From a virus (Duplodnaviria; Caudoviricetes): DNA of 24,309 bases. Position numbers and translations under genes: made by a program. Where the stretch lies: IMG/VR virus record IMGVR_UViG_3300017589_000258, positions 1 through 24,309 of that record; one strand, given 5' to 3'. The notes beneath the pieces are model-generated. The model did not search any database, was not told where the DNA came from, and worked only from the letters and a program-made list of their open reading frames with translations. The stretch's first letter is position 1. The number at the start of each line of letters is the position of its first letter. Positions 1,779-24,309 of the stretch are shown piece after piece.

Positions 1779-2198
1779 ATGGCTAGACCAACAGATTATA
1801 GACAGGAGTATAACGACTTAGCTTATAAGTATTGTTTACTCGGTGCTTCTGATAAAGATTTAGCTGATTTTTTTTATGTAGAAGAGTCTACGATTAACAA
1901 TTGGAAGATAGCACATACAGAGTTTATGGAGTCCATAAAAAGAGGCAAAGAATTAGCTGACGCAAATGTAGCAAGTAGATTGTACAGCAGAGCAACTGGA
2001 TACGAGCAAAAAACAGATAAAATCTTTCAATTCCAAGGCAATCCGGTTATTGTGCCAACAGTTGAACATATAGCACCTGACACTACTGCTGCAATCTTTT
2101 GGCTTAAAAACAGACGGCCTAAAGATTGGAGAGACAAGCAAGACATTGAGGTATCTGGCAACGTCAGTTTCTCAGGTGAAAGCGAGTTAAAAGACTGA
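1779..2198 (+). CDS. terS: terminase small subunit
   Basis: MARPTDY start, HTH (LGASDKDLADFF..ESTINNWK), PDTTAAIFWLKNR.P..WRDKQ motif; upstream of terL. Confidence 0.85.
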   Translation: MARPTDYRQEYNDLAYKYCLLGASDKDLADFFYVEESTINNWKIAHTEFMESIKRGKELADANVASRLYSRATGYEQKTDKIFQFQGNPVIVPTVEHIAPDTTAAIFWLKNRRPKDWRDKQDIEVSGNVSFSGESELKD

Positions 2199-2590
2199 TG
2201 AAGTCAACAAAATAATGATTTTTTGACCAAGGTTACAATCTGTAACTAATCCTGTATCAACTGCAGGAGTAAGTATACAAGGTTTTACAGCTTGTTTCCT
2301 TTGCTTTGCTTGTTCGTCAATAACACGGATTTCGTGGTTTCAATGGCTGTTATGTGACCAACTAATGCTGCTTGTGCTGCTGAGTGATTGAGGGTATGTA
2401 CTCTCTCCTGCTGGTTGGTTGTGGGGGCTGCATGATGTGGATGCCTGGTTGCTGGCCGTGCCGGAATCGGGGGTGGGGTAGTCGCGGATTGGGCGGGTAC
2501 GGGTGGAGGGAAAGGTATAGTATATATATCCCTCCTTAAACTTTCCCTTTTACACAATTAATAAAAAATCAACCTAAGGAGTTACAATAA

Positions 2591-2821
2591 ATGGTAAGCG
2601 ATAATAAACAGTGTTCTACTTCTGGAATGATATGCACCAATGGAGAAATAGCTAACGCAAATCATTTTACTCATCATAGAGCTGTAAGTGATTCGTGCGC
2701 CGAATATTCAGAAACTGACTATCAATCAGAATGCGCAAAGCTAGCGAGAGAAAACGCTGAACTGAAAGCTGATATTGCCCAGCTAAGAGCGGCGCTCATA
2801 AAAGTCGCTCTAAAGCTGTAG
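2591..2821 (+). CDS. hypothetical protein with Cys-containing N-terminus and C-terminal coiled coil
   Basis: AAGGAG RBS; heptads LARENAELKADIAQLRAAL. Confidence 0.65.
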   Translation: MVSDNKQCSTSGMICTNGEIANANHFTHHRAVSDSCAEYSETDYQSECAKLARENAELKADIAQLRAALIKVALKL

Positions 2822-3015
2822 CCCACATCCACTAGTACATATTTCAAATTCACTTTAGAAGCTATCACATGCTTATTGAAGACGACTGGATTTAACGCAC
2901 ATTCTCCATCGGTCATTTGGGACGCTTGTGCCAGCGAGTGTTCGCAAAAACAATGAATAGCCCCGACTGTCTTCGGACTTAGGGTTGGCGGCTGGATGCG
3001 TCTTGCCGCCTATAC

Positions 3016-3091
3016 GCTGACATAGCTCAAACGGTAGAGCGTCGCACTTGTAAAGCGAAGGTTGCGTGTTCGATTCACGCCGTCAGCTCCA
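3016..3091 (+). tRNA. tRNA-Thr (anticodon TGT)
   Basis: 76-nt cloverleaf: acceptor GCTGACA/CGTCAGC, D arm GCTC/GAGC, anticodon loop CT-TGT-AA, T arm GCGTG-TTCGATT-CACGC, encoded CCA; mismatches at 7-66 and 31-39. Confidence 0.92.
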
Positions 3092-3092
3092 C

Positions 3093-3123
3093 GCCATCCT
3101 ATGGGGTGGCTGTTTTGTTGTTT
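3093..3123 (+). terminator. intrinsic terminator-like hairpin after the tRNA
   Basis: GCCATCC-TATG-GGGTGGC followed by TGTTTTGTTGTTT. Confidence 0.6.
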
Positions 3124-3258
3124 AAATTCCGTTAGGTGCTGGCTCGTTGAGAGCGCGGTGTGGACAAGCGCCAAAAGGACAAGTGGGGAAAAATATCGGT
3201 TTCGTATATAGCCTTGGGGCGGGCGGGCTAGATTCCGACAAAAGAAAGCGGTGATTCT

Positions 3259-4137
3259 CTGGACTGGAAATCAGAGGCTGAACACTTAAAATTTGACGAT
3301 GGCTTGTCGTGGAAAGAAGTATATGCCTCTCTACGGCATTACTTTCCCGAATCAACTGACAAACAGGTTGAAGAACGGATACGCAGAGCATTGCGCAGAA
3401 GCCCAAAGTATCACGCCGACAAACCAAGATCAAACCAAGACCATTTTACCTATCACAGCGATTCGTCAGTAAATCTGTACATTGTTTCTGACGTACATTG
3501 CGGCGCTCATGGCTTTGACAAGAAAGCCTTTACTCGATACATAGCCATGATTGCAAGGGATGATAACGCGGTTGTGGCAGTACTTGGAGACTTGATTGAC
3601 AACGCAACGCAAGGCTCCAAGGGTTGCATATTTTCTCAGCGTGTTTCACCTCAAAAACAGGTTGAGAGTGTCATTGAAATGTTAACGCCCATCAAAGACA
3701 AAATCATATTTTTTTGCATCGGCAATCATGAAGAAAGAACATTCCGGCAGACTGGCAGTGACCCCGGATATACAATGTGCCTCGGGCTAAACTGCCTCGA
3801 CAAATACAACTACGTCCACGGCTTTATTACCATTCACGCCGCAGGAAAAATGTACAAGCTGTACGCCACTCACAACATCGGGAAAGCGGAGAGCAAGCTA
3901 AAAACGATGGCTCGAGCGCATTCTGATTGCGACATTATTATGGGCGGTCACATTCACCAAGCGAAGGTTGTGCCTGTTGCCCAACAGCTTCACAGCGGCA
4001 AAATAAAGACCACCTACGCTGTCACGGGGTGCGCTTGGCTGAAAGACGAAAGCTACTCCATATCTGCCGCCTACGAGCCTGTCAGCATGTCGCCTCCGCT
4101 TATAACACTGGGAGAACGAATGAATGTATACCAGTGA
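3259..4137 (+). CDS. calcineurin-like metallophosphoesterase with a small N-terminal helical extension
   Basis: Motifs SDVH, GDLIDN, GNHE, H, GHIH; start proposed at CTG 3259 behind AAAGCGGTGA (ORF track gives TTG 3304). Confidence 0.85.
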   Translation: MDWKSEAEHLKFDDGLSWKEVYASLRHYFPESTDKQVEERIRRALRRSPKYHADKPRSNQDHFTYHSDSSVNLYIVSDVHCGAHGFDKKAFTRYIAMIARDDNAVVAVLGDLIDNATQGSKGCIFSQRVSPQKQVESVIEMLTPIKDKIIFFCIGNHEERTFRQTGSDPGYTMCLGLNCLDKYNYVHGFITIHAAGKMYKLYATHNIGKAESKLKTMARAHSDCDIIMGGHIHQAKVVPVAQQLHSGKIKTTYAVTGCAWLKDESYSISAAYEPVSMSPPLITLGERMNVYQ

Positions 4138-4312
4138 TAAGCGGCTGATTTGCCTATGCCACCGCTGCTTGCAGGACTACACGTCAACTGGCTGGCGCGC
4201 AAAGCGTGACTACTCTGTGCAGATTTTAGAAGAATGCGAACATTGTAACCGCAGCAGCTGGGTCTATTTGATTGAGAGGGTAAAGCATGGCGAAAGCAAA
4301 GACGACAATTAA
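4124..4312 (+). CDS. small zinc-ribbon protein (62 aa)
   Basis: CHRC...CEHC pairs; GGGAG RBS; overlaps both neighbours. Confidence 0.65.
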   Translation: MYTSDKRLICLCHRCLQDYTSTGWRAKRDYSVQILEECEHCNRSSWVYLIERVKHGESKDDN

Positions 4313-5714
4313 TCTTCCAGATGTTGTTGGGGCTGGATATGGAAGCTTTTGGAGCGATAGACACCGCTATCGCGTTTTAAAGGGCGGTCGTGCTTCTAAA
4401 AAATCCACCACTACAGCCTTATGGTTTATCACCAACCTCATGAAATACAAGGACGCCAACGCGCTTGTTGTTCGCCAAGTCTACAATACCCACAAGGACA
4501 GCACCTTTGCCATGCTCAAATGGGCGGCTACGCGCTTGGGGGTATATCACCTCTGGCAGTTTAAGGAAACCCCCTTAGAGTGCATTTACAAGCCCACAGG
4601 GCAAAAGATATTATTCAGAGGTTTTGACGATGTTTTTAAGCTGACTTCCATTACTGTTGCAAAAGGCGTTCTTTGCTGGGTGTGGTGCGAAGAAGCCTAT
4701 GAAATTCAGGACGAAGAAGAATTTCGCGTGCTTGACGAAACCATTCGAGGTGAAGTTCCCGATGGCTTGTGGAAACAAATTACACTCACCTACAATCCGT
4801 GGGTGTCGTCACACTGGACAAAAGACCGTTTTTTTGACAGTACCGACCCTGACGCATTCACCCTCACGACCACCTACAGATGCAACGAGTGGCTTGACGA
4901 TGCAGATAGAAAGCTGATCGAGGACACAGCGGTAACAAATCCTGATAGGTACAGGGTTATCGGCTTGGGCGAGTATGGCATCCCAGGCGGTGCGTTCTTT
5001 GGCGAATTTCGTACGGACACTCATGTTATGGAGCCTTTTCCTATCCCGTCGCACTGGACGCGCTTTGTTTGCATTGACTACGGGCTTGATATGCTTGCCG
5101 CCCTCTGGATTGCCGTTGACGAGCGAGGATTTGCTTATATTTACAAAGATATCAACGAACCGAATTTAATTATATCCGATGCCGCACAAAGGGTTAAGGA
5201 AGTAAGCGGCGGCGAAAATATCCGCCTGCACTATGCCCCTCCCGACCTTTGGAATAGGCGACAGGAATCTGGCAAGTCGGTTGCAGACTGGTTTCGTGAT
5301 TCTGGCATTGTTCTTTTCAAGTCAAATAACGACCGTGAAGACGGTTGCTTTGCGATGAAAGAATGGCTAAAGCCCATCGACACAAAAGACGTTGAAACAG
5401 GCGCACCTATCAGAATTGCAAAACTGCGTATTTTTTCAAACTGCAAAACGCTGATTAACTCCTTGCCGCAGCTTAGGACGGACGAAGTTAAGCCGAACAT
5501 ATACGACAATGAAGCTAAAAGTGCAACGAGACATAAATTGACGCATGCGCCTGACGCATTGCGTTATTTTTGTGTCATGCGCCACCGACCGACAGACGCT
5601 ATTATTCAAAAATCATATGACTATTTCCGCGATACTTACGGCTACGGCGACAATGAACACGATGGCGAACCCTCAGAAAGCTATATTTACATGAAAGTGA
5701 CGGGGAGAAGATGA
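4287..5714 (+). CDS. terL: terminase large subunit (PBSX-like ATPase plus RNase H-like nuclease)
   Basis: Walker A GGRASKKS, Walker B WVWCEEA, coupling motif TYNP, nuclease IDYG and HAPDALRY. Confidence 0.95.
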   Translation: MAKAKTTINLPDVVGAGYGSFWSDRHRYRVLKGGRASKKSTTTALWFITNLMKYKDANALVVRQVYNTHKDSTFAMLKWAATRLGVYHLWQFKETPLECIYKPTGQKILFRGFDDVFKLTSITVAKGVLCWVWCEEAYEIQDEEEFRVLDETIRGEVPDGLWKQITLTYNPWVSSHWTKDRFFDSTDPDAFTLTTTYRCNEWLDDADRKLIEDTAVTNPDRYRVIGLGEYGIPGGAFFGEFRTDTHVMEPFPIPSHWTRFVCIDYGLDMLAALWIAVDERGFAYIYKDINEPNLIISDAAQRVKEVSGGENIRLHYAPPDLWNRRQESGKSVADWFRDSGIVLFKSNNDREDGCFAMKEWLKPIDTKDVETGAPIRIAKLRIFSNCKTLINSLPQLRTDEVKPNIYDNEAKSATRHKLTHAPDALRYFCVMRHRPTDAIIQKSYDYFRDTYGYGDNEHDGEPSESYIYMKVTGRR

Positions 5715-5995
5715 TAATTTACCCTATTTTACTTACGGTTTTGCCCTTTATTTGCTTTTTCCTGTGCGTCTACTGCTACATTTTGGGGGTAAAGCATGGG
5801 CGTGTTGCTCAAAACGGCGGTACACCGCGCATCCCAAACCCTGTCGCCGCCATAAAAACGGCTGTTGAGGAAGCGGAGGCAGAAAAGGAAGCCAAGGAAC
5901 TTGACAGCGAGTTTGGAGAAATCATGTCTTTGTCGCGAGAGAGCATGATGGACGCGATAGATAAAAAGCGCGACGACCGAATGGGGCGTGGTTAA
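5711..5995 (+). CDS. small membrane-anchored hypothetical protein
   Basis: N-terminal hydrophobic helix (IIYPILLTVLPFICFFLCVYCYILGV); ATGA overlap with the terL stop. Confidence 0.7.
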   Translation: MIIYPILLTVLPFICFFLCVYCYILGVKHGRVAQNGGTPRIPNPVAAIKTAVEEAEAEKEAKELDSEFGEIMSLSRESMMDAIDKKRDDRMGRG

Positions 5996-9978: not shown

Positions 9979-10032
9979 CAAAAATGGGGAGGGGGAAAAC
10001 GCCCCCTCCCCTCCCCAATCATGGAGGATGCT

Positions 10033-10341
10033 ATGAAATTTTTTGCTCAACCCAATTTATTTATTCGATTCAAACCGCTTCACAAACGGTTGTTTAATGC
10101 AACAGGCTTTTTCTTTGACGCTAACGGAGAGTTTGAAACCGACCGCGAACTGCTCATTAAAGTTTTGCAGAAACAGTTTAAATATGAAGATACAGCCACC
10201 GCAAAAGCTATTAAACCCGAAAACACCGCTGACACTGGCGAAAATATAAAGCATTGCAAAAAGTGTGATTTTACGTGTTTTAATCAAGGCGACTTGTTGG
10301 CTCATTACAGAAAAGAACACCCAAAAGGAGATGCAGAATGA
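10033..10341 (+). CDS. hypothetical protein with C-terminal C2H2 zinc finger
   Basis: Start moved to ATG 10033 behind GGAGG; C-x2-C-x12-H-x4-H (CKKCDFTCFNQGDLLAHYRKEH). Confidence 0.7.
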   Translation: MKFFAQPNLFIRFKPLHKRLFNATGFFFDANGEFETDRELLIKVLQKQFKYEDTATAKAIKPENTADTGENIKHCKKCDFTCFNQGDLLAHYRKEHPKGDAE

Positions 10342-11732
10342 AAAATCCCATCAAAAACATTTCCGCAAATGTTGCTTACATCAATCCTTCGGACACCATT
10401 TTAAAAGTAGACACTTCCGTTTTTGCAACGGCAGTGTATTTCAGCGAGCCGTCAAAAAATTACGATGGCACTTACACGGTCAAGAAAACGGACAGCGGCT
10501 CAAACGCGGTCACTATTTATCCTTACGCGGGAGATACAATAGACGGCTCCGCAAGCGTAACGCTGGCCTTACAAAACGACTATAAAACGCTTTCGCCCGT
10601 TAGCGGAGGCTGGACTGTCGTTGATGCTTACACCGCCACACCGACGCTTGTTAACCCCACAATCACAGGCACAGGCTCGGCGGTGCTTAGTAAAATCAAT
10701 CCCGTTTCTGCAACAGGCGTTTTGACAATTGGCGGTGTTGCTATTGACGGCGAAACTGTGACCATCGGGACAGATGTTTATGAGTTTTGCGCAGACGCCG
10801 CGCAGTCTTTAACAGAAGGCTCAACAGTTGCGGTTGACATTACAGCGCATGCCACAGCTTCACAGGGAACATTGACAATGCCTGTAAACCCCACGGCGAC
10901 CAACACCATGACAATCGGTGAAACGGAATATACGTTTGTTGCCCTTGCTGATTTTGACACAGCGGGAGAAATCCCCATTGGTACAAATGTGGCGGCAACT
11001 CAGGTAAATGCAGTCGCGGCAATCAACGGAACAGATGGAGTAAACGAAGCGCACACCCTTGTTACTGCGGCGGCTTTTGCGACTAACGCTTGTGTGATTA
11101 CCGCCAAAGTCGCGGGCGTAGCAGGAGATTTAATTGCGACTACAGAAACTTTTACAGCCGAAACAAACATATTTGACGGCGACACACTCGGCACAACTGA
11201 GGCGGGCGTTGACTGTACGGCTACTCTTGCTGTTACTGCTTTGGTGGGTGAAATCAACGCAAGCGGCACAATGGGTGTAACTGCGGCTGATAGCGCAGGG
11301 GATACCGTGACGTTGACCGCAACGGCTGGCGCGGCTGGTACTGCACTGGCTACCACTGAAACGATGGCTAACGGAGCATTTGCGGCGGCTACCCTTGTCG
11401 GCGGTTCTGACATGGGGCTGACGACTCCCATCTTTACAAACCCGATTTCAAGAATAACCGTTGGCACTCACAGCTATGCAAGCGGCACAACTGCATGGAC
11501 GCTGACAGCGGCTGAACTTCTCAAGCCATATCACATCATGACGCTTGCTGGCGGCGGCGTTGATGCCGTCATTCCCCTTACTCCTGCTATTCCATATACG
11601 TTTATTAACACAAGCGGTCAGGCTGTTACGGTTAAGGGTGCAAGCGGAAACGGCATTGCAATTGCAAGCGCAAAAACAGCCACAGTTATGGCAGACGGCA
11701 CAAATGTTATCAGGCTTACACCTGACGCATAA
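10338..11732 (+). CDS. Thr/Ala/Gly-rich multidomain virion surface or fibre protein
   Basis: 464 aa; N-terminal VKKTD.S.NAVTI...TIDG module, two related beta domains, C-terminal ..DGTNVIR module. Confidence 0.65.
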   Translation: MKNPIKNISANVAYINPSDTILKVDTSVFATAVYFSEPSKNYDGTYTVKKTDSGSNAVTIYPYAGDTIDGSASVTLALQNDYKTLSPVSGGWTVVDAYTATPTLVNPTITGTGSAVLSKINPVSATGVLTIGGVAIDGETVTIGTDVYEFCADAAQSLTEGSTVAVDITAHATASQGTLTMPVNPTATNTMTIGETEYTFVALADFDTAGEIPIGTNVAATQVNAVAAINGTDGVNEAHTLVTAAAFATNACVITAKVAGVAGDLIATTETFTAETNIFDGDTLGTTEAGVDCTATLAVTALVGEINASGTMGVTAADSAGDTVTLTATAGAAGTALATTETMANGAFAAATLVGGSDMGLTTPIFTNPISRITVGTHSYASGTTAWTLTAAELLKPYHIMTLAGGGVDAVIPLTPAIPYTFINTSGQAVTVKGASGNGIAIASAKTATVMADGTNVIRLTPDA

Positions 11733-11745
11733 GGGGGATAAATAA

Positions 11746-12336
11746 ATGTCATCTTTACTCGAATTACAGTCTGCAAAGGTCTATCTCGGCAAGAGTGGAA
11801 TTGAGGGCACAAAAGGCATCTTTGCGGTTGACGACGATAAAGTTGTCACTTTCACAAATATGAAAGTAGGCGTTTACACGGTTGCCGCACAGCCTACCGC
11901 CTCATGCCTTATTAGTGTATTGGCAACCGCTGTAGGGACGGCTGACACAATGGGTACGCTAGCGGTTGTCGGCTCTCTGGCTGGCGTAGCGGCCACCGAA
12001 AGCATTGTCCCGATTGCTGGCACTACAGTTTACAGCGCCAATGAGTACGACACCATTACTTCCATCACTGGCGCAGGCTGGGTTATTGACGCAGGAAGCG
12101 GCAACGACACAATCAAAATCGGCGTTGCTTCCGCTGTTTCTGGCGACAATTATTACTTTACCGCAGTTCAAGCCCTTGCTGATACCGTAGTGGCATCACA
12201 AACCGACGTGACGGGCTACACAGGCACACAGCTCAGCGATTACACCAAAATACCCGAGGGCGTAACCGTGCCTTGCAGATGCACGAAAATAGCCCTTACA
12301 AGCGGTGAAGCAATCGGCTATCTGGCGAGGGTATAA
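11746..12336 (+). CDS. putative virion structural protein
   Basis: 196 aa, beta-rich; AAGGGGG RBS; lies between head and adaptor genes. Confidence 0.6.
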   Translation: MSSLLELQSAKVYLGKSGIEGTKGIFAVDDDKVVTFTNMKVGVYTVAAQPTASCLISVLATAVGTADTMGTLAVVGSLAGVAATESIVPIAGTTVYSANEYDTITSITGAGWVIDAGSGNDTIKIGVASAVSGDNYYFTAVQALADTVVASQTDVTGYTGTQLSDYTKIPEGVTVPCRCTKIALTSGEAIGYLARV

Positions 12337-12349
12337 GGAGGCGGCTTAA

Positions 12350-12943
12350 ATGGCTACCACAGCTAACACTTGTTTGCAAATTGCTTTGTCTCTCGCAGAC
12401 GAAATACCAGATACGGGGCTTTTCACTTCTTCTGATCTTGACAGTTACAAAGTCCGCGCTCCCTATATTCTCACCCTGCTTGAAGCTGAATTGCTCAAAG
12501 AGGGTGAGATTTTTAATGCCTATACTTTGACAGACACTGATGCACCATTCTCCACTGCTACTGTTGACGATGTGTGGATACGGATTACAATGCCAGCCGA
12601 TTTCAAAAGTGTAAATGAAGTCACTACGATTGACGCTGACGGTAACTATGTCAATGTTTCGTACAAGTGGGAAAGCAAAAATATCCTCGTTTTCCCTGCG
12701 CAGTTTGAAGGTACGCTTACAGTTTCCTACCACGCAATACCGGCCGTAATTACCGCGCTGACAGATGCTTTGCACGTGGACGACATCACGGCAAGAACGC
12801 TTCTTCCCTACGCTCTGGCGGCTGAACTATTTAAGATGGAAAATCAGGACATTTATAACTACTGCTCTCAGCGGTATCAACAGTTAAAGAAAGCAACGGT
12901 TAAAAAAGCAGTGATGGCAGAAATTGTAGATTATTATGCGTAA
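12350..12943 (+). CDS. head-tail adaptor / tail tubular protein A-like
   Basis: 197 aa with helical ends, MPADF turn and LLPYALAAEL helix; precedes the nozzle gene. Confidence 0.65.
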   Translation: MATTANTCLQIALSLADEIPDTGLFTSSDLDSYKVRAPYILTLLEAELLKEGEIFNAYTLTDTDAPFSTATVDDVWIRITMPADFKSVNEVTTIDADGNYVNVSYKWESKNILVFPAQFEGTLTVSYHAIPAVITALTDALHVDDITARTLLPYALAAELFKMENQDIYNYCSQRYQQLKKATVKKAVMAEIVDYYA

Positions 12944-12955
12944 GGCGGTGATGAA

Positions 12956-13240
12956 GTGGCAAGAGAAAGTATTTTTACCATTGACAAATTTCTTGGCGTG
13001 AATGAATCGCCTGACGGTGACACGGGGCTACAGTTTGGTGAAGCGGCGATTATGCGCAACTTTCACATTACCAAAGAGGGCAATTTGCAAAAACGCCCTG
13101 GCTGGAAATCTATTTTCCGAGCGCCTGATACTACACCCGTTCGCTGTATTTGGCACGGAAATGTTAGTGGCGTAGAGCACGTTGTTGTCGCATCCGCTGG
13201 CAAATTGTTCGACATGCGGCTTAGCGATTTTGGAGGGTAA
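12956..13240 (+). CDS. N-terminal fragment of tail nozzle / DNA stabilization protein (tubular protein B, P22 gp10-like)
   Basis: AAGGCGGTGA RBS; F.G.N..PDGDT.L..GEA..MRNF.IT..GNLQKRPG is the typical nozzle N-terminus; stops after about one propeller blade. Confidence 0.75.
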   Translation: MARESIFTIDKFLGVNESPDGDTGLQFGEAAIMRNFHITKEGNLQKRPGWKSIFRAPDTTPVRCIWHGNVSGVEHVVVASAGKLFDMRLSDFGG

Positions 13241-13242
13241 AC

Positions 13243-13356
13243 ATGATTGTAAAATCTGAACCAGTTATTACCGTATCCGCTGTTATTACGCGCAAAGACG
13301 GGCGCATTGAAAATCTTGGCATTATTTCAACCAATAAAAATAAGGAGGACAAATAA
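13243..13356 (+). CDS. 37-aa peptide (MIVKSEPVITVSAVITRKDGRIENLGIISTNKNKEDK), below the ORF-track cutoff
   Basis: GGAGGG RBS at 13232-13237; fills the gap exactly; its TAA abuts the next ATG in the same frame. Confidence 0.65.
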   Translation: MIVKSEPVITVSAVITRKDGRIENLGIISTNKNKEDK

Positions 13357-13743
13357 ATGGCAACTGTATCCGTATTGACTGACGGTGGTCTTGACATTAC
13401 AACTAATCGTATTAAGGGCAGCGGCACTGAGCCGAAGTATGTAGGCTGGGGGACTGGAACGACTGGTGCTGTTGTGGCCAACACCGCGCTTGAAACTCCC
13501 GCGGCAGAAGCTAGAACTTCGGGAACCACCTCGCAGGAAACCACTACAGAAACAAATGATACATACCGCGTTGTTGGTGCTATTACTTGCGCCACCTCTG
13601 CAAAGGCAATTACAGAGGTTGGCTTGTTTGACGCGTCAACTGACGGCAATTTGTTTGAGCGCAGCACATTCAGCGCAATCAATCTTGATGTTGGCGACGC
13701 GGCAACATTTACTATTGACGTAGTTTTTGCCCATCCTGCGTGA
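13357..13743 (+). CDS. putative virion structural protein resembling tail-fibre N-terminal / baseplate attachment modules
   Basis: AAGGAGG RBS; VLTDGG...YVGWGTG...TALE...ITEVGLFDA...G.L..R..F..I.L..GD...FT pattern. Confidence 0.65.
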   Translation: MATVSVLTDGGLDITTNRIKGSGTEPKYVGWGTGTTGAVVANTALETPAAEARTSGTTSQETTTETNDTYRVVGAITCATSAKAITEVGLFDASTDGNLFERSTFSAINLDVGDAATFTIDVVFAHPA

Positions 13744-13770
13744 TGATACGCTATTTAATTATGTTGGGAG

Positions 13771-16752
13771 GTGGTTATTATCGCTGATCGTTTTTGGGTG
13801 GGCGGTGGAGGCAACTGGTCAGATTATACCAATCATTGGTCGGATACGTCTGGCGGTTCTCCCGGCGCAACTGTTCCAAATTCTAATCATAACGCATATT
13901 TTGACGCGAACAGCTTTACTGCCTCCGGGCAAATAGTAAACATTGATGGTGGCGGCGGGTATTGCCTAAATATGGATTGGTCTGGCGTAACAAACACTCC
14001 AACACTTACAAACGGTACTGGATACTTGCCTATAGCTATTTACGGAAGTTTAACTTTGTCGCCTAATATGTCAACCGGGTCATATGGAAATGTAATTTTG
14101 TTTTTATTTAAAAGCAATATTGCTGGACACACAATTGATATGGCGGGAATAAAAACTTGGAATATGTCTTTTGATGGCGATGGAAGTTGGACGCTATTAA
14201 GCGACTTAATTGTAGCGAATAACTTTTCGATTGATAAAGGGAATTTAAACACAGGCGGTTATAATATCTCTTGCGCTAATTTTTATTGCTACGCAGCTAG
14301 CTATGCAAAGTCGCTTGTATTAAACGCGTCTGTAATTACAATCAGTGGTGACGTTCGTTTTGGCGTGGCCAACACAACTATTTCAGCTGGAACATCAACC
14401 ATTAAAATAACGGGAAACTCAAAAACATTTATTGGTGATGGGCAAACGTTTAACAACGTAGAGTTTCAAGGAACACCAACTACTATTACGGGTAGCAACA
14501 CATTTAACGACTTAAAAATATCCGCAGGAAAAACGGTTAATTTTACAGCGGGTACAACGCAGACCGTAGCCGACATGAGCGGAAACGGCATCAGCGGAAG
14601 CCTTATTACTTTGCAATCTACCTCCGCAGGAACGCCTTACACTATCAGCAAGGCAAGCGGAACACTAGAAGTTGAGTATTACTCTATTAAAGACTGTACG
14701 GCTTCTGGCGGCGCTACGTTCAATGCAGTTAATTCGACCAATGTAAGCGGAAACACGGGCTGGTCATTTTCTTATACTCTGCATCTTATTGCAAATGCCT
14801 TAGCTTCTGTGGGGTTGCAAAAATCATCTGCAAAAGCGTTGTCAACCTCTACCGTTGTTGCGCCAATCGTGCAAAAAAGCGTTGCTAAATCGCTTTTAGC
14901 AAATGCAATTACGTCTTCTGCAATACAAAAATCAGTCTCCAAAACTTTTGCATCTTTGGCATTTGCAGCTTCATTTGCCAGTAAAACCGTTGCAAAATCT
15001 TTCAGTGCGTCAGCCAATGTTGCGGCAAGCACAAGCAAAACAGTTGCTAAGACTTTAACTGCATCTGTAATTACCACAGCTTCCGTTGCAAAAAGCTTAA
15101 CAAAATCGCTTGTTACTTCCGCGTCATCTACCGCAAGCATAGTTAAGCAAACTGCTAAAACTTTAATTGCGACCGTATTTGCAACTGCAAACAGCGGATA
15201 TATTGTTGGTGATGTTATCGGCACGCTGACAGACGCCGAAACTCATATGTTTGGCTTCAATAACAAGCTGTACATTATGAACGGCACGCAGTACAAGGTG
15301 TGGGACGGCACAACGCTTTCTGACGTGGCAGGATACGTCCCGATTGTGGCAACTGCCGCCGCACCCGCAACGGGTACAGGAACAAGCAACGAGCAAGTAA
15401 ATAAACTGATTGCAAGTCAATACATCTGGTATTCAGGGACGGTTGATACGACGGTATATCAGCTTCCAGCCACTTCCCTAACAAGCGTCGACGCAGTTTA
15501 TGTGAATGACGCGTTGCAAACCTTGACGACGCATTACACCGTCAATTTGACGAATGGCACGGTTACTTTTGGAACGGCTCCGGGCGCTGGCACAAACAAT
15601 GTCAAAATCCGCTACACTAAAACCACCACAGCGCAAACGGCTAACCGCGCTTTAATACTTGCTCAAAAGTATTCGGAAATGTTCAATGGGAAAACAGACA
15701 ATAGAATATTCCTGTATGGTGACGGCACAAACAAAGCTTATTACAGCGGCATTGAGTACGCGACAGGCAGGCCAACCGCCGAATACTTCCCCGATTTAAA
15801 TGTGCTTGACATTGGGACAAGCAACACCCCTGTCACCGCTTTGACACGCCATTTTAACAAGCTGATGGCATTTAAAACCGATGGAACTTACCTGACCGAA
15901 TACGGCACTATTACGCTTGAAGACGACACTGTAACCGCAGGATTTTACACAAGCGGAATTGACAGAGACACGGGCAATACAGCTTTAGGGCAAGTAAGGC
16001 TTGTCAACAACTATCCAATTGCGATACACGGAAATTCGGCGTACCGCTGGGGACTTTTGTATTCTAGCGGCGTGCAAGACGAACGCTCGGCAAAGAGAAT
16101 ATCAGACCACGTTGCAAACACACTCTCAGGGCTTGCGCTTTCTTCTGCAATCACTTTTGACGACGATTTAAACCGCGAATTTTGGATTGTGCAAAACGGC
16201 ACGGCATTAATTTGGAATTATGCGGGTGAAGTTGACCAAGGCAAGAGCTACAAAAACAATACATGGAGCATTTACAACAACATTCCTGCATCGTGTTTTG
16301 CACAAGTTAACGGTGACGTTTATTTTGGCACAACTGATGGGCGTATTTGCAAATTGTCAACAGACTATCACAGCGACGACGGCACGGCAATTAACGCATA
16401 TTGGGAATCTGGTTCAATGTCTTTTGACAAGCCCTACATGCGCAAAGTGCTGTCTTACGTTTACACAGTGCTAAAGCCAGAGGTTGGAACTAGGTTAAAT
16501 GTCACGCTTGAAACTGATAAGAAATCAGACTTTGACGACAAACTTCTCGGGGAAAGCGTTCTTAATTTCACGCACATTGACTTTAACCATTTCAGTTTTT
16601 CGACCAATTACAAACCAAGGACTAACCGCACCAAGCTAAAGGCGAAAAAATTTACTACGCTAAAGCTGATTTTTTCCAGCAATTCAGCTTCAGCAACAGC
16701 GACCGTTTTGTCTTGTTCTTTGCCCGTAACAGAAACAGGATACACAAAGTAA
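13771..16752 (+). CDS. fusion protein: putative adhesin / beta-solenoid domain, 18-aa repeat stalk, and C-terminal ~510 aa of the tail nozzle
   Basis: RFWVGGGGNW N-terminus; repeats at 14821-15198; from ~15214 nozzle-like motifs FNNKLYIMNG..Y..WDG, RIFLYGD, YFPDLN, YFGT.DG, YWESG. True start may be 13777 or 13780. Confidence 0.8.
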   Translation: MVIIADRFWVGGGGNWSDYTNHWSDTSGGSPGATVPNSNHNAYFDANSFTASGQIVNIDGGGGYCLNMDWSGVTNTPTLTNGTGYLPIAIYGSLTLSPNMSTGSYGNVILFLFKSNIAGHTIDMAGIKTWNMSFDGDGSWTLLSDLIVANNFSIDKGNLNTGGYNISCANFYCYAASYAKSLVLNASVITISGDVRFGVANTTISAGTSTIKITGNSKTFIGDGQTFNNVEFQGTPTTITGSNTFNDLKISAGKTVNFTAGTTQTVADMSGNGISGSLITLQSTSAGTPYTISKASGTLEVEYYSIKDCTASGGATFNAVNSTNVSGNTGWSFSYTLHLIANALASVGLQKSSAKALSTSTVVAPIVQKSVAKSLLANAITSSAIQKSVSKTFASLAFAASFASKTVAKSFSASANVAASTSKTVAKTLTASVITTASVAKSLTKSLVTSASSTASIVKQTAKTLIATVFATANSGYIVGDVIGTLTDAETHMFGFNNKLYIMNGTQYKVWDGTTLSDVAGYVPIVATAAAPATGTGTSNEQVNKLIASQYIWYSGTVDTTVYQLPATSLTSVDAVYVNDALQTLTTHYTVNLTNGTVTFGTAPGAGTNNVKIRYTKTTTAQTANRALILAQKYSEMFNGKTDNRIFLYGDGTNKAYYSGIEYATGRPTAEYFPDLNVLDIGTSNTPVTALTRHFNKLMAFKTDGTYLTEYGTITLEDDTVTAGFYTSGIDRDTGNTALGQVRLVNNYPIAIHGNSAYRWGLLYSSGVQDERSAKRISDHVANTLSGLALSSAITFDDDLNREFWIVQNGTALIWNYAGEVDQGKSYKNNTWSIYNNIPASCFAQVNGDVYFGTTDGRICKLSTDYHSDDGTAINAYWESGSMSFDKPYMRKVLSYVYTVLKPEVGTRLNVTLETDKKSDFDDKLLGESVLNFTHIDFNHFSFSTNYKPRTNRTKLKAKKFTTLKLIFSSNSASATATVLSCSLPVTETGYTK
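14821..15198 (+). repeat. seven tandem degenerate 54-bp (18-aa) repeats, K-[ST]-x-[AST]-K-[ST]-[LF]...
   Basis: KSSAKALSTSTVVAPIVQ / KSVAKSLLANAITSSAIQ / KSVSKTFASLAFAASFAS / KTVAKSFSASANVAASTS / KTVAKTLTASVITTASVA / KSLTKSLVTSASSTASIV / KQTAKTLIATVFATANSG. Confidence 0.9.
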
Positions 16753-17474: not shown

Positions 17475-17531
17475 GCAGAACGTCAAGCGTTGCGTGATGC
17501 AGTCAACGCACTGGAGGCACAAAATGAGTAA
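17475..17531 (+). pseudogene. possible 3' remnant of a lost small tail-associated gene (AERQALRDAVNALEAQNE*)
   Basis: The intergenic gap reads as an amphipathic helix resembling C-termini of small fibre-associated proteins; it has no credible start and contains the lysin RBS. Confidence 0.4.
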
Positions 17532-18822
17532 ACAAATCGCAACCATTCCGCTCTCCACAATCGAGCGAATACAAATTTACATCAACACCGCAAAAAAGTC
17601 TCTTGCCACAATCAAAGCTGAAACAGGCGCTGACTATTTAATCAACGGCGGCTTGTACAATATGTCAACATTCAAGCCTGTTTGCCACCTTAAAGCTGAC
17701 GGCGTAGTTTACGCAAAAGACCAGTACGCCTACTGGGGCTATTCGTGGAATGCCGCTGACATTTCAATGACCGTTGTGCCAGATTCCGCAAAGCAAAATT
17801 ATATCTGTTGCAACGCCCTTATCGATGCAAACGGAAGGGTGGACAAGCTGGCGTATACATCTGCACAGGGAGGCGCAAGAGGCAGGACGGCCATAGGCAT
17901 TGCAGGTGACAAGCTGTGCCTGTACGTTTCCGGAGACGGCACAGCAGACGCCAAGACGCCCGAAGGCTTGCGTGACGAACTCATTGCCCTTGGCTGTACA
18001 TCGGCGCTTATGCTCGATTCTGGCGGTTCTTCTCAGTGCATTTTCAACGAAACCGAAATAAGAAGCGCAAGGCGGGTACACAATTTCATTTTGGTATATC
18101 TGAAAAAGGGAAAGCTAGAGCCCGTCAAGGAGGATACATTGGCAATAAAAACAATATGCCTTGATGCAGGACACGGCACAGGCTCGGTTAACGGTACGCC
18201 TGACGGCACATACAAAGAAGAAGAATTTACTTTTGATATGCAAGGGCGTATCAAGCCGCTTTTGGAGCGTCACGGCGTGGGCGCGGTGCTGACTAGACCG
18301 ACACGGGCAACAGTGTCGCTGGCAAACAGGGCAAAGATAGCCAACGCCGCAAAGGTTGATGCTTTCGTTTCCCTCCACTCTAACGCGGCGGGAAATGGCG
18401 GCTGGTACGATGCAAGCGGATTTCTTATTTACACATCGGCGGCGGGTGATACAGCGGGGCGAAACATTCTTGCCAAGGCTATTATTGCCCGTGCCAAAGA
18501 AGCAAAAATCAAAGTGAGAAACACCGCCTTAGCGCATAGCATGTACGCAGTCCTGAAAAACACTACAATGCCAGCCGTGCTGATAGAGTACGGTTTCCAC
18601 ACTAGCAAGGAAGATTCCGAACTGCTGAAATCGTCTGACTACAGGGACAGGCTGGCAGAGCTGACCGCAAATGGTATTTTGGACTACCTCGGTATTGCGT
18701 GGGCAGATAGCACCGCCGATCAGGTAAAAAAACGGTTTGACTTTGCGGATGAAACTATGGAATATCTTGCGGCTTATGAGTACGCTGACGCTTTACTAAG
18801 GGCATTGGCAACAAAAAAATAA
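17524..18822 (+). CDS. endolysin: phosphodiester glycosidase (NAGPA-like) domain plus N-acetylmuramoyl-L-alanine amidase (Amidase_3)
   Basis: ATG 17524 behind GGAGG; INGG, RTAIG and LDSGGSS motifs, then LDAGHG, E, SLHSNA and LIEYGF zinc-amidase motifs. Confidence 0.88.
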   Translation: MSKQIATIPLSTIERIQIYINTAKKSLATIKAETGADYLINGGLYNMSTFKPVCHLKADGVVYAKDQYAYWGYSWNAADISMTVVPDSAKQNYICCNALIDANGRVDKLAYTSAQGGARGRTAIGIAGDKLCLYVSGDGTADAKTPEGLRDELIALGCTSALMLDSGGSSQCIFNETEIRSARRVHNFILVYLKKGKLEPVKEDTLAIKTICLDAGHGTGSVNGTPDGTYKEEEFTFDMQGRIKPLLERHGVGAVLTRPTRATVSLANRAKIANAAKVDAFVSLHSNAAGNGGWYDASGFLIYTSAAGDTAGRNILAKAIIARAKEAKIKVRNTALAHSMYAVLKNTTMPAVLIEYGFHTSKEDSELLKSSDYRDRLAELTANGILDYLGIAWADSTADQVKKRFDFADETMEYLAAYEYADALLRALATKK

Positions 18823-20433: not shown

Positions 20434-23400
20434 ATGGCAACTTTAAAAGGTTCTGCGCGGCTCAACGCCCTTGCTACTACGCCAAAAGAAGCGGCTACTT
20501 CCGGCATCAATCGCCTACAGGCATTGTCAACTCCTGCCACCTCCTTGCCGCTTCGCGGCAGTGCGGCGAGAAGTTCAGCGGATAGCCCGATCGTTCCATT
20601 AAGCGCCTCCAATCCGTGGAGAAATACAACAACTGCGTCTTTGCCCACTCCACCTAAGGCAACCGAACCGCCCAAAATTGCAGACCCTGTTAAAAGTGCG
20701 GGGCTTGCAATCGGGGGCGGTGTTAAAAGCGCTGTTGGTGGTTCCTTTAACGCCCTAGAAACCCTGTCTAACCTTTTGACCAACAAAGCGTCAAAAAGCA
20801 CAGGGGTTAGCGAGGACAAGCTGTCTCAGGTGTCAAGGGGCTTGCGTGGCATCCCTACCGAACAGGCTAAAGTGACCACTCTGCCCAGCGGCGGTGAATT
20901 AATCAACAGCGCCGCTCTCGATACGGCTAAGGCTAAGGAAAACACGGGCAAGGTCGGTTCTTTTGTGGTCGATGCTCTCAGCGGTGGCGCAAATATGGCT
21001 ACTGGTTTTGGGTTGTCTGCTCTTACTGGCATCCCTTTTGTTGCCGCAATGGGCATACAGGCTGGCGGCTCGTCTGCCTTTAACGCTAAAGAGCAAGGCA
21101 AAACAATTGAGCAACAGGCACTGTATGGCTTGACAAGCGGTCTTGCAGAGGCGGCAATTGAAAGCATTGGCGGTATTGGTGCATCAACAGCATTGAAAGC
21201 GGCGGCTGGCAAAGGCGTGTCTGCCTTAATTAGCAAGCTTTCTCCGCAACTTGTCACCGCTATTGGCAACCTTGGCGCTTCTACAATTGGGAAAATTCTT
21301 GGTTCTGCCGCAAGCGAGGGCGCTGAGGAAGCCATTAGTTACGATGTTGATAGATTTTTGCAAGGGCTTATTCTTCAAAACGATGTGCCAAGAGATATTA
21401 AAGACCAAGCATATCAAGCGCTTGTTGGAGGCGCACTTGGTGGTGTGTTTGGCGGCGTTCAAGTTGTGGGGCAAAACACAGCGCAGGTAACGCCCCCCCA
21501 GACCGCTCAGAATGCCCCACAAGTGCCGCAAGCAACCGCCCTTGAAAGTACCCCTGTAGAGCAAACAAACGTTACGGCGGCGCAGGCAGTGGCGCAAGAA
21601 GCGCCCCCCGCGCAGGATGTATATGCTTCCTCTGTTTCTGAGCAGGACAACGCAATCGCTACGCTTGAAAAGTCGCTTGAAACCGAAAGGGCGTTGTTCC
21701 GTAATCTGTACGCTGAATACAAAAGCACAGACATTGAAAGCCGCAGACCCGAATTGCTTGCGGAGGCACAGGCGCAGCGCGGAAAGATTGCACAGGCTGA
21801 AAAGGCGTTACAGCAGGCGCAAGAAGCGCTTGCTCAATTCAAGTCCGATAATGCAAATGCGGAAAAATCAAAGGCTGGCATTGCAAAAATCACCGACATT
21901 ATGGCTAATTTTCAAGACCGCTTTATCAGCGAATCTGCATTGGCTGAAATTGAAAAAGTCGGTGAAATGAGCGCTGAGGTTTCCGCGCTCAGGAAAGCAT
22001 ACAACAAGGCTATCAGTTTGCAGACTGGCGTTAACCGTTTGGTCGCTCAATTGCAGTCCTCTGAATCTTTGCTAGAGAGCGCATCGATTCAAGCCAAATT
22101 AGATAAAGCAAATGCGCAGCTTGACAAGGCGGCACAAGATTTGCAAACGGCGCAAAGCAAAGTCGCAAACTATTCGGATGTAACGCAGACTGTTTCTGCG
22201 CCGCAAAAACCTTCACCGGCTCCAAAGGCGTTGTTTGATGTGGCGAGGGAGAATGGGCAACAAGCGCCCCTTCCCGCTATGGCAAACACCGTTGTTATGG
22301 ATAGCCCCCAAAAACAAGGCAATCTCAAAGGCACACTCGAAAACGCCTATACTCGCACGGTTGACGCGCAATACCCCATTGCCCGATATGCAAAAGTGGC
22401 GCAGGACGGTACAGATATTTTGGCATCTAACACAAAAAATGCGGGCGGCACAGTCAACTATATTTTCACGGATGCGCTTGTCGATAAACAAGGCAACAAA
22501 ATCGGTTCATCTTTGCAAGAAGTTGTAAGCGCAATTCCGCAAGACCAGCAAACCGAATTTTGGAATTACATGGTGCAGCGCCAAAACATCGACCGCGCAA
22601 GAGAGGGCAAGAATGCGGTTCCTGATTTTACGCCCGAAATGTCCACCAGATATGTTGCTGAAACAGAATCTGTCAACCCCGCATGGAAAGCAACCGGCGA
22701 CAGCCTTGTTAGCTGGATTGATGCTTTCAACCAAGAATGGGGCGTAGGCTCTGGCATCATCAACGCAGACCTCTACAAGTCTTTGCGCGATACCTATAAA
22801 AGTTATTTCCCTTTACAGCGTGAATTTGATGAAATTGAGGGCAGTATACCGCGCGATATTTCAAAGCAATTTGTGGATTCGTCAACGCCCATCAAAAAGG
22901 CAACCGGTTCCAGCCGTGATATCAATAATCCTGTAGAAAACATTATGAACATGGTAAACAACACTGTCAAAATCGCTCGGTATAACGCAGTTGGGCAGAA
23001 CATATTAAACTCCGTTCGTGCCAATCCAGACGCACTGGTTAAATATGCAGAAATCATTGACGGGGATGCGGCAAAGCTATCCAAGACAGACGATATTGTC
23101 ACTGTTCTGGAAAACGGCGAAAAGGTGTATCTGAAAATCAATGACATAGACCTTTTGAAATCACTCAAAGGGCTACCCAAAACCACGATCAGCATTCCGG
23201 TTATGTCGCAGGCCACCAACTTATTCAAAAGCCTTATTACGCAGAAAAACCCCTTCTTTGCCGCCCGTAACGTGGCAAGGGACGTCCCAACCGCTTATAT
23301 TTATGGGAGTGAACCCAACCCCGTAAAGTATGCCGCTGGGCTTGGTGGCGCAGTAAAGGACATAGCGACCAACAGTGAAAACTACCAACGGTATAAAGCT

Positions 23401-24309
23401 GTCGGCGGTGGCATGGCAAACTTTTTCAACCCGTCGAACGTTGAAAAGTCTGCGAAATCACTGACCAGCCCAAGCAAGCCGTCAAATCTCCTGCAATATG
23501 CAAAACTGGTTGGTTCAAAAGTCAACAGCGGTATTGAGAATTTTAACAACATGACGGAATCAACTCCACGCCTTGCAGAATTTAACCGCGTATTTGAGCG
23601 CACCGGCGATGTGCAAAAAGCCCTTGATGCATCCAATAATGTCACGGTCAACTTTTCGCGCGGTGGCGATGTAACAAAGGCGATTGACCGCAATGGTGTG
23701 GCATACCTTAACGCTGGCGTTCAGGGCTTGGACAAGTTTGTGCGCAGCTTCTCCACCCCGCGCAAGGCGGTGGCAACACTGGCGAAAGCTGGCATTGCAA
23801 TCACACTTCCTGACCTTGTTTTGTATCTCATGAACAGGGACGATGAAAAGTACAAGGAATTGAGCAACTACATTAAAGACAATTATTACTGCATACCGCT
23901 TGGGAATGGAGAGTTTGCAAAGATACCCAAAGCGAGAGAATTTGGTGTGTTGTTTGGATCACTCTTTGAGCGCATACTCAGGGCGGCAAGCGGAGAGCAA
24001 GACGCATTTAAAGGCTTCGGCGATACTGTTGCAACTAGCTTTTCGCCTGCCAATCCCCTTACCGCCAACCTCCTTACTCCTGCTACCCGCAATATTGACC
24101 AAAACAAAACCTATTCCGGCGCGGCAATTGTGCCACAAAGTATGTTGCAGGATAACCGCTCACCGTATTTGCAATACGACGAAAAAACAAGCGAGCTGAC
24201 AAAGGCAATTGCGGCCTATGCAAATCAGGTCGGCGTTGACTTGTCGCCTAAAATTATGGATCACCTTATAAATTCGTACACTGGCGTTATTGGCGACTTT
24301 CTGCTTCCC
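20434..24309 (+). CDS. large internal virion / ejection protein with LPD38-like C-terminal region (3' partial)
   Basis: GGGAGG RBS, ATG 20434, open for 1292 codons to the window end; Gly/Ala hydrophobic helices, coiled coil, then NPFF..RN..RD, E...RLAEF, VTVNFSRGG, YLNAGVQGLDK, IPK.RE.G and SP...DHL..SYTG motifs. Confidence 0.85.
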   Translation, partial: MATLKGSARLNALATTPKEAATSGINRLQALSTPATSLPLRGSAARSSADSPIVPLSASNPWRNTTTASLPTPPKATEPPKIADPVKSAGLAIGGGVKSAVGGSFNALETLSNLLTNKASKSTGVSEDKLSQVSRGLRGIPTEQAKVTTLPSGGELINSAALDTAKAKENTGKVGSFVVDALSGGANMATGFGLSALTGIPFVAAMGIQAGGSSAFNAKEQGKTIEQQALYGLTSGLAEAAIESIGGIGASTALKAAAGKGVSALISKLSPQLVTAIGNLGASTIGKILGSAASEGAEEAISYDVDRFLQGLILQNDVPRDIKDQAYQALVGGALGGVFGGVQVVGQNTAQVTPPQTAQNAPQVPQATALESTPVEQTNVTAAQAVAQEAPPAQDVYASSVSEQDNAIATLEKSLETERALFRNLYAEYKSTDIESRRPELLAEAQAQRGKIAQAEKALQQAQEALAQFKSDNANAEKSKAGIAKITDIMANFQDRFISESALAEIEKVGEMSAEVSALRKAYNKAISLQTGVNRLVAQLQSSESLLESASIQAKLDKANAQLDKAAQDLQTAQSKVANYSDVTQTVSAPQKPSPAPKALFDVARENGQQAPLPAMANTVVMDSPQKQGNLKGTLENAYTRTVDAQYPIARYAKVAQDGTDILASNTKNAGGTVNYIFTDALVDKQGNKIGSSLQEVVSAIPQDQQTEFWNYMVQRQNIDRAREGKNAVPDFTPEMSTRYVAETESVNPAWKATGDSLVSWIDAFNQEWGVGSGIINADLYKSLRDTYKSYFPLQREFDEIEGSIPRDISKQFVDSSTPIKKATGSSRDINNPVENIMNMVNNTVKIARYNAVGQNILNSVRANPDALVKYAEIIDGDAAKLSKTDDIVTVLENGEKVYLKINDIDLLKSLKGLPKTTISIPVMSQATNLFKSLITQKNPFFAARNVARDVPTAYIYGSEPNPVKYAAGLGGAVKDIATNSENYQRYKAVGGGMANFFNPSNVEKSAKSLTSPSKPSNLLQYAKLVGSKVNSGIENFNNMTESTPRLAEFNRVFERTGDVQKALDASNNVTVNFSRGGDVTKAIDRNGVAYLNAGVQGLDKFVRSFSTPRKAVATLAKAGIAITLPDLVLYLMNRDDEKYKELSNYIKDNYYCIPLGNGEFAKIPKAREFGVLFGSLFERILRAASGEQDAFKGFGDTVATSFSPANPLTANLLTPATRNIDQNKTYSGAAIVPQSMLQDNRSPYLQYDEKTSELTKAIAAYANQVGVDLSPKIMDHLINSYTGVIGDFLLP

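Follow-up and report, generated by a model that had tools for sequence, protein, structure and literature searches.

The closest described counterpart of the locus examined here is found in A1002, a Pseudomonas podophage of the genus Kochitakasuvirus, where cryo-electron microscopy showed a nozzle built from gp42 (398 amino acids (aa), the N part) and gp39 (620 aa), with gp39 also providing a ~300-Å rope that carries 11 dimers of the gp80-like proteins gp40/gp41 (PMC13730344). That report calls the split nozzle unique and only proposes an origin for it. In Bas63 and GP4, bead dimers sit on a rope and rope domains complete the bead sandwiches, as described in PMC12609058; the GP4 system is taken here from this source and from PMC13730344. 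The bead-chain neck fibre of A-1(L) consists of trimers according to PMC10966104 and was not used for comparison. Here we describe a split nozzle gene in the virus record IMGVR_UViG_3300017589_000258 (Duplodnaviria; Caudoviricetes). The window, meaning the whole stretch of DNA analysed, is the complete 24,309-base provirus record (61% complete). In it, a podophage-type nozzle gene is interrupted by about 2 kb of coding sequence whose last gene is fused in frame to the remainder of the nozzle. The reading we favour, with a probability of about 0.78 and by analogy with A1002, is a nozzle made of two chains and bearing six bead-on-rope fibres, each with about one bead dimer per rope repeat and a head domain as its cap. 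The preliminary description of this DNA, made from the sequence alone, had taken such nozzles to be single-chain proteins, which no longer holds now that the split nozzle with a rope of A1002 has been published (2026, PMC13730344); among the titles found in our literature search there was no further split nozzle, subscription papers lying outside that search.

The two nozzle pieces

Four open reading frames (ORFs) cover the region at the positions first reported, namely 12956-13240 (94 aa), 13243-13356 (37 aa), 13357-13743 (128 aa) and 13771-16752 (993 aa). The features assigned in and next to them, including two Shine-Dalgarno (SD) sequences, are as follows.

12350..12943, + strand: portal adaptor gene, directly upstream of the N piece (Pfam SU10_adaptor, E 0.0026, below cut-off)
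12956..13240, + strand: nozzle N piece, 94 aa (homology; phrog_3287 positions 8-86)
13232..13240, + strand: 5′ junction, where the SD of the first cassette gene is formed by the final two codons of the N piece together with its stop (sequence, SD scan)
13243..13356, + strand: 37-aa hairpin mini-gene (conserved companion of this bead subfamily)
13357..13743, + strand: bead, Gp80 (GP4 fiber I) fold, 128 aa (profile and structural matches)
13767..13782, + strand: SD and likely non-AUG start of the long ORF, ATC 13780 or ATT 13777 (SD scan, homologues)
13780..14772, + strand: head domain, ~330 aa, all-beta, beta-helix-like (AlphaFold2 model; putative binding role)
14776..15207, + strand: rope, seven full and one degenerate 18-aa repeats (repeat analysis)
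15208..16752, + strand: nozzle C part, ~514 aa, in frame behind the rope (homology, intact-homologue fold)

Homologues of the two pieces were searched separately, and the results bear out the claim that they are adjoining parts of one ~600-aa nozzle protein. On ~600-aa homologues the N piece covers residues ~1-99 and residues 483-993 of the long ORF cover ~97-110 to the end, and 118 of the 120 best listed homologues of the C part are also matched by the 94-aa piece. Compared with four intact relatives, zero residues are lost at the junction. The pieces lie in two ORFs in different frames, so the nozzle is not encoded as a single polypeptide, and the window's record holds only one match to the C part.

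The identity of the protein as a nozzle was examined through an intact homologue, P0001, which is 66% identical to the C part and 51% identical to the N piece. Its AlphaFold2 model (67-row alignment) has a pLDDT of 90.6, and all 30 of its 30 best Foldseek rows were podophage tail complexes, including P22 gp10, T7 gp12, VP1, GP4 and Sf6, with E values of 1e-21 to 1e-12 for the top matches to nozzle complexes. The nozzle assignment of the preliminary description is thereby supported, the platform and beta-propeller fold being that of intact P0001 rather than of the window's own chains. Gene order agrees with this, as the portal, the capsid and the weak SU10 adaptor match all lie upstream, and in the syntenic relative L002 the adaptor is followed by an intact nozzle gene without an insert. 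The 'amidase' label that phrog_5107 places on the C part was rejected, being contradicted by the nozzle fold. As a separate observation, phrog_5107 matches the C-terminal half of these nozzles, and 'amidase' is probably a mislabel.

The cut falls between predicted strands 83-87 and 94-99 of the P0001 model, and the C part would begin at the fourth strand of the first blade. Going by the P0001 strand order alone, this place would be the c-d surface turn of the first propeller blade, and the N piece would contribute strands to the platform, the one that closes the last blade, and three in the first blade. Of the columns conserved in at least 90% of 67 homologues, the N piece keeps 19 of 20 and the C part 84 of 87. 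Profile scores place both in mid-range, the N piece being outscored by 27 of 44 held-out intact genes and the C part by 16 of 42. Judged by sequence, neither nozzle piece shows a sign of decay. Synonymous sites relative to the homologues are saturated (pS 0.72-0.93) and dN/dS is uninformative.

The inserted module

The first cassette gene belongs with the second. In 52 of 81 bead loci a hairpin motif lies in an ORF of its own upstream of the bead gene, and in none is it fused to the bead; a hidden Markov model of the hairpin, trained on 43 loci without the window, matches the 37-aa ORF with an E value of 5e-11, the best of 439 targets. A different idea, that the 37-aa hairpin is the missing N-terminal ~30 residues of A1002 gp41, was unsupported (E 3.1 against KPP25 ORF007). 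The 128-aa protein has the Gp80 fold. It matches Pfam Gp80 (PF23140) with an E value of 2.8e-4 and a score of 21.7, under the cut-off of 27, and because of this score we place it in a divergent Gp80 subfamily. Gp80 is matched by 35 of 45 aligned bead relatives, the bead profile finds PDB 8jou_a (E 0.0028), and the Atlas model of the bead reaches a TM of 0.88 to a Gp80 cluster that satisfies the bar for naming. The bead profile gave a weak match in 2 of the 399 genomes of the class of G001 and in none of the 5 records with near nozzles. Locus L248 encodes at 316-846 a 176-aa bead-like protein of another subtype, directly before a head-domain gene (window bead profile E 0.02, weak).

The seven full 18-aa repeats originally noted were confirmed at residues 354-479 and are joined by a degenerate eighth. 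At lag 18 the autocorrelation of the rope protein is 1.40, as against a maximum of 0.67 in 300 shuffles; Tandem Repeats Finder did not detect the rope repeats in the DNA. The preliminary description had called these repeats a stalk. The repeats are real, but rather than a self-supporting stalk they appear to be a rope like those onto which dimers of Gp80-type beads are threaded. With the 128-aa ORF as the bead, the graft would be a bead-chain fibre. An alternative is that the nozzle is indeed made of two chains, with the repeats forming a self-supporting stalk that presents an adhesin and the 128-aa protein placed elsewhere on the virion. This would suit a beta-helix-like head of a type found in secreted surface and tail proteins. 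However, a Gp80-fold gene directly precedes the rope gene in the window, L300, L315, L289, L166 and KPP25/A1002, L300 and L315 have bead and rope without a head, and in the solved cases the rope completes the incomplete sandwich of the beads (PMC13730344, PMC12609058). We regard a bare stalk as improbable, slightly more so than the loss of function discussed below.

The AlphaFold2 model of the head domain is all-beta with a pLDDT of 96. It has zero matches in the PDB at E ≤ 0.001 (best E 0.9), and its TM to uncharacterised phage models, including a 'parallel beta-helix repeat', is up to 0.82-0.86. About 50 of the 119 listed head relatives, counted by eye, carry PF18962 (T9SS sorting domain) and some carry a phage tail family, which suggests from sequence a surface-exposed role. 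The head domain constitutes a large unnamed family, with no match in Pfam, PHROG or NCBIfam, and many copies of it occur within individual T9SS-domain and phage tail proteins. As for the earlier proposal of a receptor-binding domain displayed on the new N-terminus, the head is absent from L300 and L315 and is thus optional; receptor binding by the head is a putative role.

A strong ribosome binding site had been claimed for the long ORF. The SD GGAGGTG is present at 13767-13773, but it overlaps the called GTG, and there is no normal ATG. Its spacing is 5 bases to ATT and 8 bases to ATC, the latter being the Met position of the homologues. Since the SD overlaps the GTG and is spaced for ATT 13777 or ATC 13780, the start is probably non-AUG. 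Where the homologous position opens an ORF, the codon is ATG in five distinct contigs and ATA in L248 (874-885), and Ile occupies this position in 3 of the 29 proteins with an N-terminal head (P0178, P0222 and P0237). Because ATA and Ile recur at the Met position, a non-AUG start is likely a trait rather than a lesion. The accessible part of the SPP1 paper (PMC6316719) gave no precedent for an AUC or AUU start. Gene callers choose a GTG inside the SD for the head-domain gene where ATC or ATA stands at the Met position.

Family searches of the window's proteins agreed with the preliminary description that the insert has no transposase or endonuclease family, and it is not bracketed by a direct repeat. 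Also as described, the head and rope are AT-richer, with GC contents at third codon positions (GC3) of 0.38 and 0.28 versus 0.46 and 0.49 in the two nozzle pieces, and the low values fit a foreign origin of head and rope. Looking for a self-splicing intron, an intein or an insertion sequence, we found no catalytic RNA fold, splicing domain, transposase or terminal repeats. The Rfam search of the insert returned zero intron families and one chance match at E 0.94, and protein family searches found no intein or maturase domain. Removal of the insert at the RNA or protein level, by an intron, ribosomal bypass or a split intein, would restore a single chain, and two features could be taken to point that way. 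A GGA codon stands just before the stop of the N piece and another near 15196, and these GGA codons at the 13240 and 15196 ends have a superficial likeness to what is reportedly seen in T4 gene 60 hopping; there is also an 11-nt inverted repeat near both ends of the insert. This repeat was rejected as a signal, as it is at chance level (~1 expected per 2.8 kb by our own estimate) and one of its arms falls inside the hairpin gene. Moreover, the gap is ~2 kb and fully coding, and unrelated inserts occupy the same site in other loci, in one of them (L312) even with an ORF on the opposite strand. Together with the empty intron and intein searches, this leaves removal the least probable of all the explanations considered.

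The module also exists apart from this nozzle. In L289 the whole of it is free-standing in a different head-tail gene cluster, with the hairpin, a bead (55% identical), a head (46%) and an 18-aa rope, and in L166/L167 a hairpin, bead and rope lie directly behind an intact, distant nozzle gene. When metagenomes were scanned with the entire long ORF, 31 loci came up, each matching the head alone or the nozzle part alone. Among 401 proteins, head and nozzle occur together only in the window's own and in P0135, and 0 of 42 longer homologues besides the window's own carry the rope fusion.

Recurrence of the cut and the favoured reading

We surveyed nozzle loci at two depths. The near family comprised 160 loci, with 113 plain intact, 26 with in-frame inserts, 16 in at least two ORFs and 5 cut by contig ends; four of the 16 fell at runs of N and were set aside, leaving 12 true splits. 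In the wider family, 75 of 80 loci were one ORF, one was cut by a contig end, and four were split at P0001 positions ~86-95, the window's own cut corresponding to P0001 ~88-95. L300 and L315 have a Gp80 bead (E ~1e-50) between the halves and a rope fused to the C part, without a head. In L309 (3122-7470) and L312 (2815-7467) the halves are separated by a tailspike-like gene, and the C piece carries no more than a short leader. The additional ORF of L312 between its nozzle halves, on the opposite strand, is 215 aa long, and the N pieces of L309 and L312 end in a similar acidic, Trp-containing tail. A further protein, P0135, combines two heads with a 20-aa rope, and its C part sets in at the strand where the window's does. 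The window's C part is 29-32% identical to those of L300, L315, L309, L312 and P0135, and in-frame inserts at the window's loop are tolerated in the single-chain homologues P0241, P0245, P0262 and P0271.

In quick trees the window grouped with intact P0001-like genes (support 96 and 100), L300 with intact L308 (99) and P0135 with intact L285 (90), and a constrained clade of the window and P0135 was rejected (approximately unbiased test, p 4e-6). By these sequence comparisons, the early cut recurs in lineages that lie within groups of intact nozzles; a split in the ancestor, later undone by many re-fusions, would need more steps. The four further full-context loci cut at the same loop and the structural precedent of A1002 make the reassembly of the nozzle from two chains, as proposed in the preliminary description, the best reading.

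The 12 true splits of the near family are at another loop, at profile position ~63, and nest among genes with in-frame inserts in the quick trees. In 9 of the 12 (L068, L071, e.g. 1959-5719, L083, L117, L118, L120, L123, L129 and L148) a radical-SAM/SPASM gene lies between the halves, L073 being a partial locus of this kind, and the C piece of the radical-SAM loci starts with 5-10 CxxxC motifs. Two of the enzymes were tested, and the PapB ranthipeptide maturase model was their best match, below its cut-off. L121 (818-3992), L124 (1363-4407) and L125 (1321-4484) are split at position 63 without an enzyme, have a C piece that starts with a different ~330-aa domain, and form a clade that nests among the radical-SAM splits. 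The radical-SAM loci possibly encode a virion appendage crosslinked in the manner of a ribosomally synthesised and post-translationally modified peptide (RiPP); the literature search found no title on a radical-SAM-modified virion protein. We would give an even chance to a more general idea, that first-blade loops are recurrent sites where phages graft accessory cassettes by splitting the nozzle gene, the helper gene settling between the two halves and its client becoming joined to the C part. Bead-on-rope would have arisen in this way at least 3 times at one loop, and radical-SAM/SPASM with CxxxC at the neighbouring loop would be a RiPP-style thioether-crosslinked appendage.

On the reading we favour for the window, the podophage nozzle gene of a Clostridia-type prophage was interrupted by a chain-fibre module. 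A pre-existing module of hairpin, bead and head-rope would have recombined into the surface turn between first-blade strands c and d. With its SD the module would have provided the N piece with a stop codon, and the last of its genes would have become fused in frame to the nozzle remainder. Through strand complementation in the platform and in the first and last blades the N piece would dock, and bead dimers of the 128-aa protein would thread the rope at about one dimer per 18-aa repeat, by analogy with the ~20 residues per dimer in A1002. This would give 7-8 dimers and roughly 20 nm per fibre, with six fibres per virion, each capped by a beta-helix-like head that may help adsorption. A weak non-AUG start could limit synthesis of the nozzle-rope chain, needed in 6 copies, compared with that of the bead, needed in some 90.

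Several points weigh against this reading. The bead-rope contact and the contact between N and C pieces rest on analogy. No second copy of the window's cassette was found in its own nozzle clade, bead or head occurring in 0 of 164 nozzle loci. A rope profile trained on the window finds ropes behind 9 of 57 bead loci (0 of 88 controls), and a looser period-18 test is noisy, with 29 of 57 bead loci against 7 of 88 controls. The window's bead is under the Pfam cut-off and has no significant profile match to the KPP25 beads, and the start codon of the long ORF is non-canonical. The trees were quick searches of 60, 18 and 31 hand-picked rows, not of all loci; L315 is a long branch and was not counted, and P0135 comes without genomic context, its N piece therefore being presumed. 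Since synonymous sites are saturated, conservation alone would also accommodate a very recent lethal insertion. Finally, the exact 3′ junction had 0 matches in the viral contigs, a set that may omit the window's own record. This last result and the dependence on a single contig would fit an assembly chimera that put an unrelated 2-kb piece into the gene. Neither junction, however, has a repeat to drive a misjoin, the pieces resume at adjacent codons with the fusion in frame, and the layout is shared with four full-context loci from other assemblies, and we consider a chimera very unlikely.

The other possibility to be weighed is that a recent insertion killed the nozzle and left a defective prophage gene. 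In its favour, the sequence comes from a provirus, ATC stands at the Met position of the long ORF, the GC3 of the cassette has not ameliorated, and the saturated synonymous sites cannot date the insertion. Against this, nothing was lost in an in-frame fusion of which neither piece is decayed, a non-ATG codon recurs at the start position (ATA in L248, Ile in 3 of 29 N-terminal heads), an equal layout occurs at the same loop in other lineages, and the neighbouring structural genes are open. A defective gene therefore seems unlikely, and we retain the two-chain nozzle with bead-on-rope fibres.

Elsewhere in the window, the genes for terminase, P22-like portal, HK97-type capsid, adaptor and lysin are all open and stand in order. 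Genome matches of the nozzle family are mostly titled Oscillospiraceae or other Clostridia, with Papillibacter in the top three, and the nearest cultured homologues are those of the Bacillus megaterium phages Page, Pascal and Palmer (29-30% identity; Page-like structural protein). Promoter and terminator counts were no higher than the shuffle level. Several neighbouring genes deserve a brief note. The terminase genes, small (1779-2198) and large (4287-5714), flank a metallophosphoesterase gene (3304-4137). Among the clustered head genes, a 106-aa ORF (10021-10341) has a C-terminal C2H2-like zinc finger and is conserved in L002. The Ala/Thr-rich ORFs at 10338-12336 are 464 aa and 196 aa long versus 228 and 102 aa in the syntenic L002, and because of this difference both are taken to carry further insertions or swaps. 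The lysin (17494-18822) is a phosphodiester-glycosidase (NAGPA) domain fused to Amidase_3 and is placed between the tail gene and ejection-type genes. The large open-ended ORF at 20434-24309 contains LPD38 and is likely an ejected polyvalent protein.

Relation to known systems

A split nozzle with a rope, described for one phage in the literature searched, is found here to be recurrent and convergent, with a different cut, and the design extends to phages of Gram-positive hosts. The route to a new host-recognition module that the preliminary description called unusual is therefore not wholly new, given the published split nozzle of A1002 (PMC13730344); what is added is a repeated independent origin at one loop, a visible source module and the radical-SAM variant, a hint that enzymes may crosslink a virion protein. 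Whether the module was inserted into a single ancestral gene can be tested directly, because intact sisters, a free-standing module and a module beside an intact nozzle all exist. The loci also mark natural split points of an essential propeller protein, and they carry a warning that gene callers will mislabel the halves and miss the non-AUG start. As to why a nozzle might be split, the sensing of nozzles by Avs13 (PMC13581612) suggests immune evasion as a motive, and nothing at this locus speaks for it.

The single-gene nozzles P22 gp10, T7 gp12 and Sf6 gp8 resemble the window's in fold and in their position behind the adaptor gene, and differ in being one gene where the window has two; nozzles of this type sit in the virion as hexamers beneath the adaptor. 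GP4 fiber I (PDB 8JOU, PF23140) and the Bas63 collar-whisker share with the window the bead fold and the beads-on-a-string principle. The rope, however, is a separate protein on the collar in GP4 and the N-terminal arm of the collar in Bas63, whereas in the window it is fused to half a nozzle.

The likeness to A1002 is closer. In both, the N part of the nozzle is followed by one or more bead genes and then by a gene that fuses the rope to the nozzle's C part; the halves are complementary, the beads are Gp80-like and the rope ends distally in a globular domain. KPP25, of the same genus as A1002, has ORFs of 398, 171, 147 and 620 aa in the window's order. The two differ in where the nozzle is cut, which is at residue ~93 in the first blade in the window and after ~398 aa, in the last two blades, in A1002. 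The late cut of KPP25 aligns weakly to P0001 ~430, and an alignment of KPP25 ORF008, also weak, spans the cut site of the window (E 0.02). A1002 is further characterised by a tail tube that is long and double-layered. The window has one bead gene and a hairpin mini-gene, whereas A1002 has two bead genes (gp41/gp40); its rope has a regular 18-aa repeat, whereas KPP25 ORF005 is without a clear period; and its far-end domain is a beta-helix-like head in place of an Ig-like domain. The hosts are Bacillota for the window and Pseudomonas for A1002, and the bead and rope of the window gave no significant sequence match to KPP25 (beads ORF006/007). We infer that the split nozzle of the window arose independently of that of A1002. 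By analogy, the window's system would work like that of A1002, yet by cut site and by sequence it is not a member of it.

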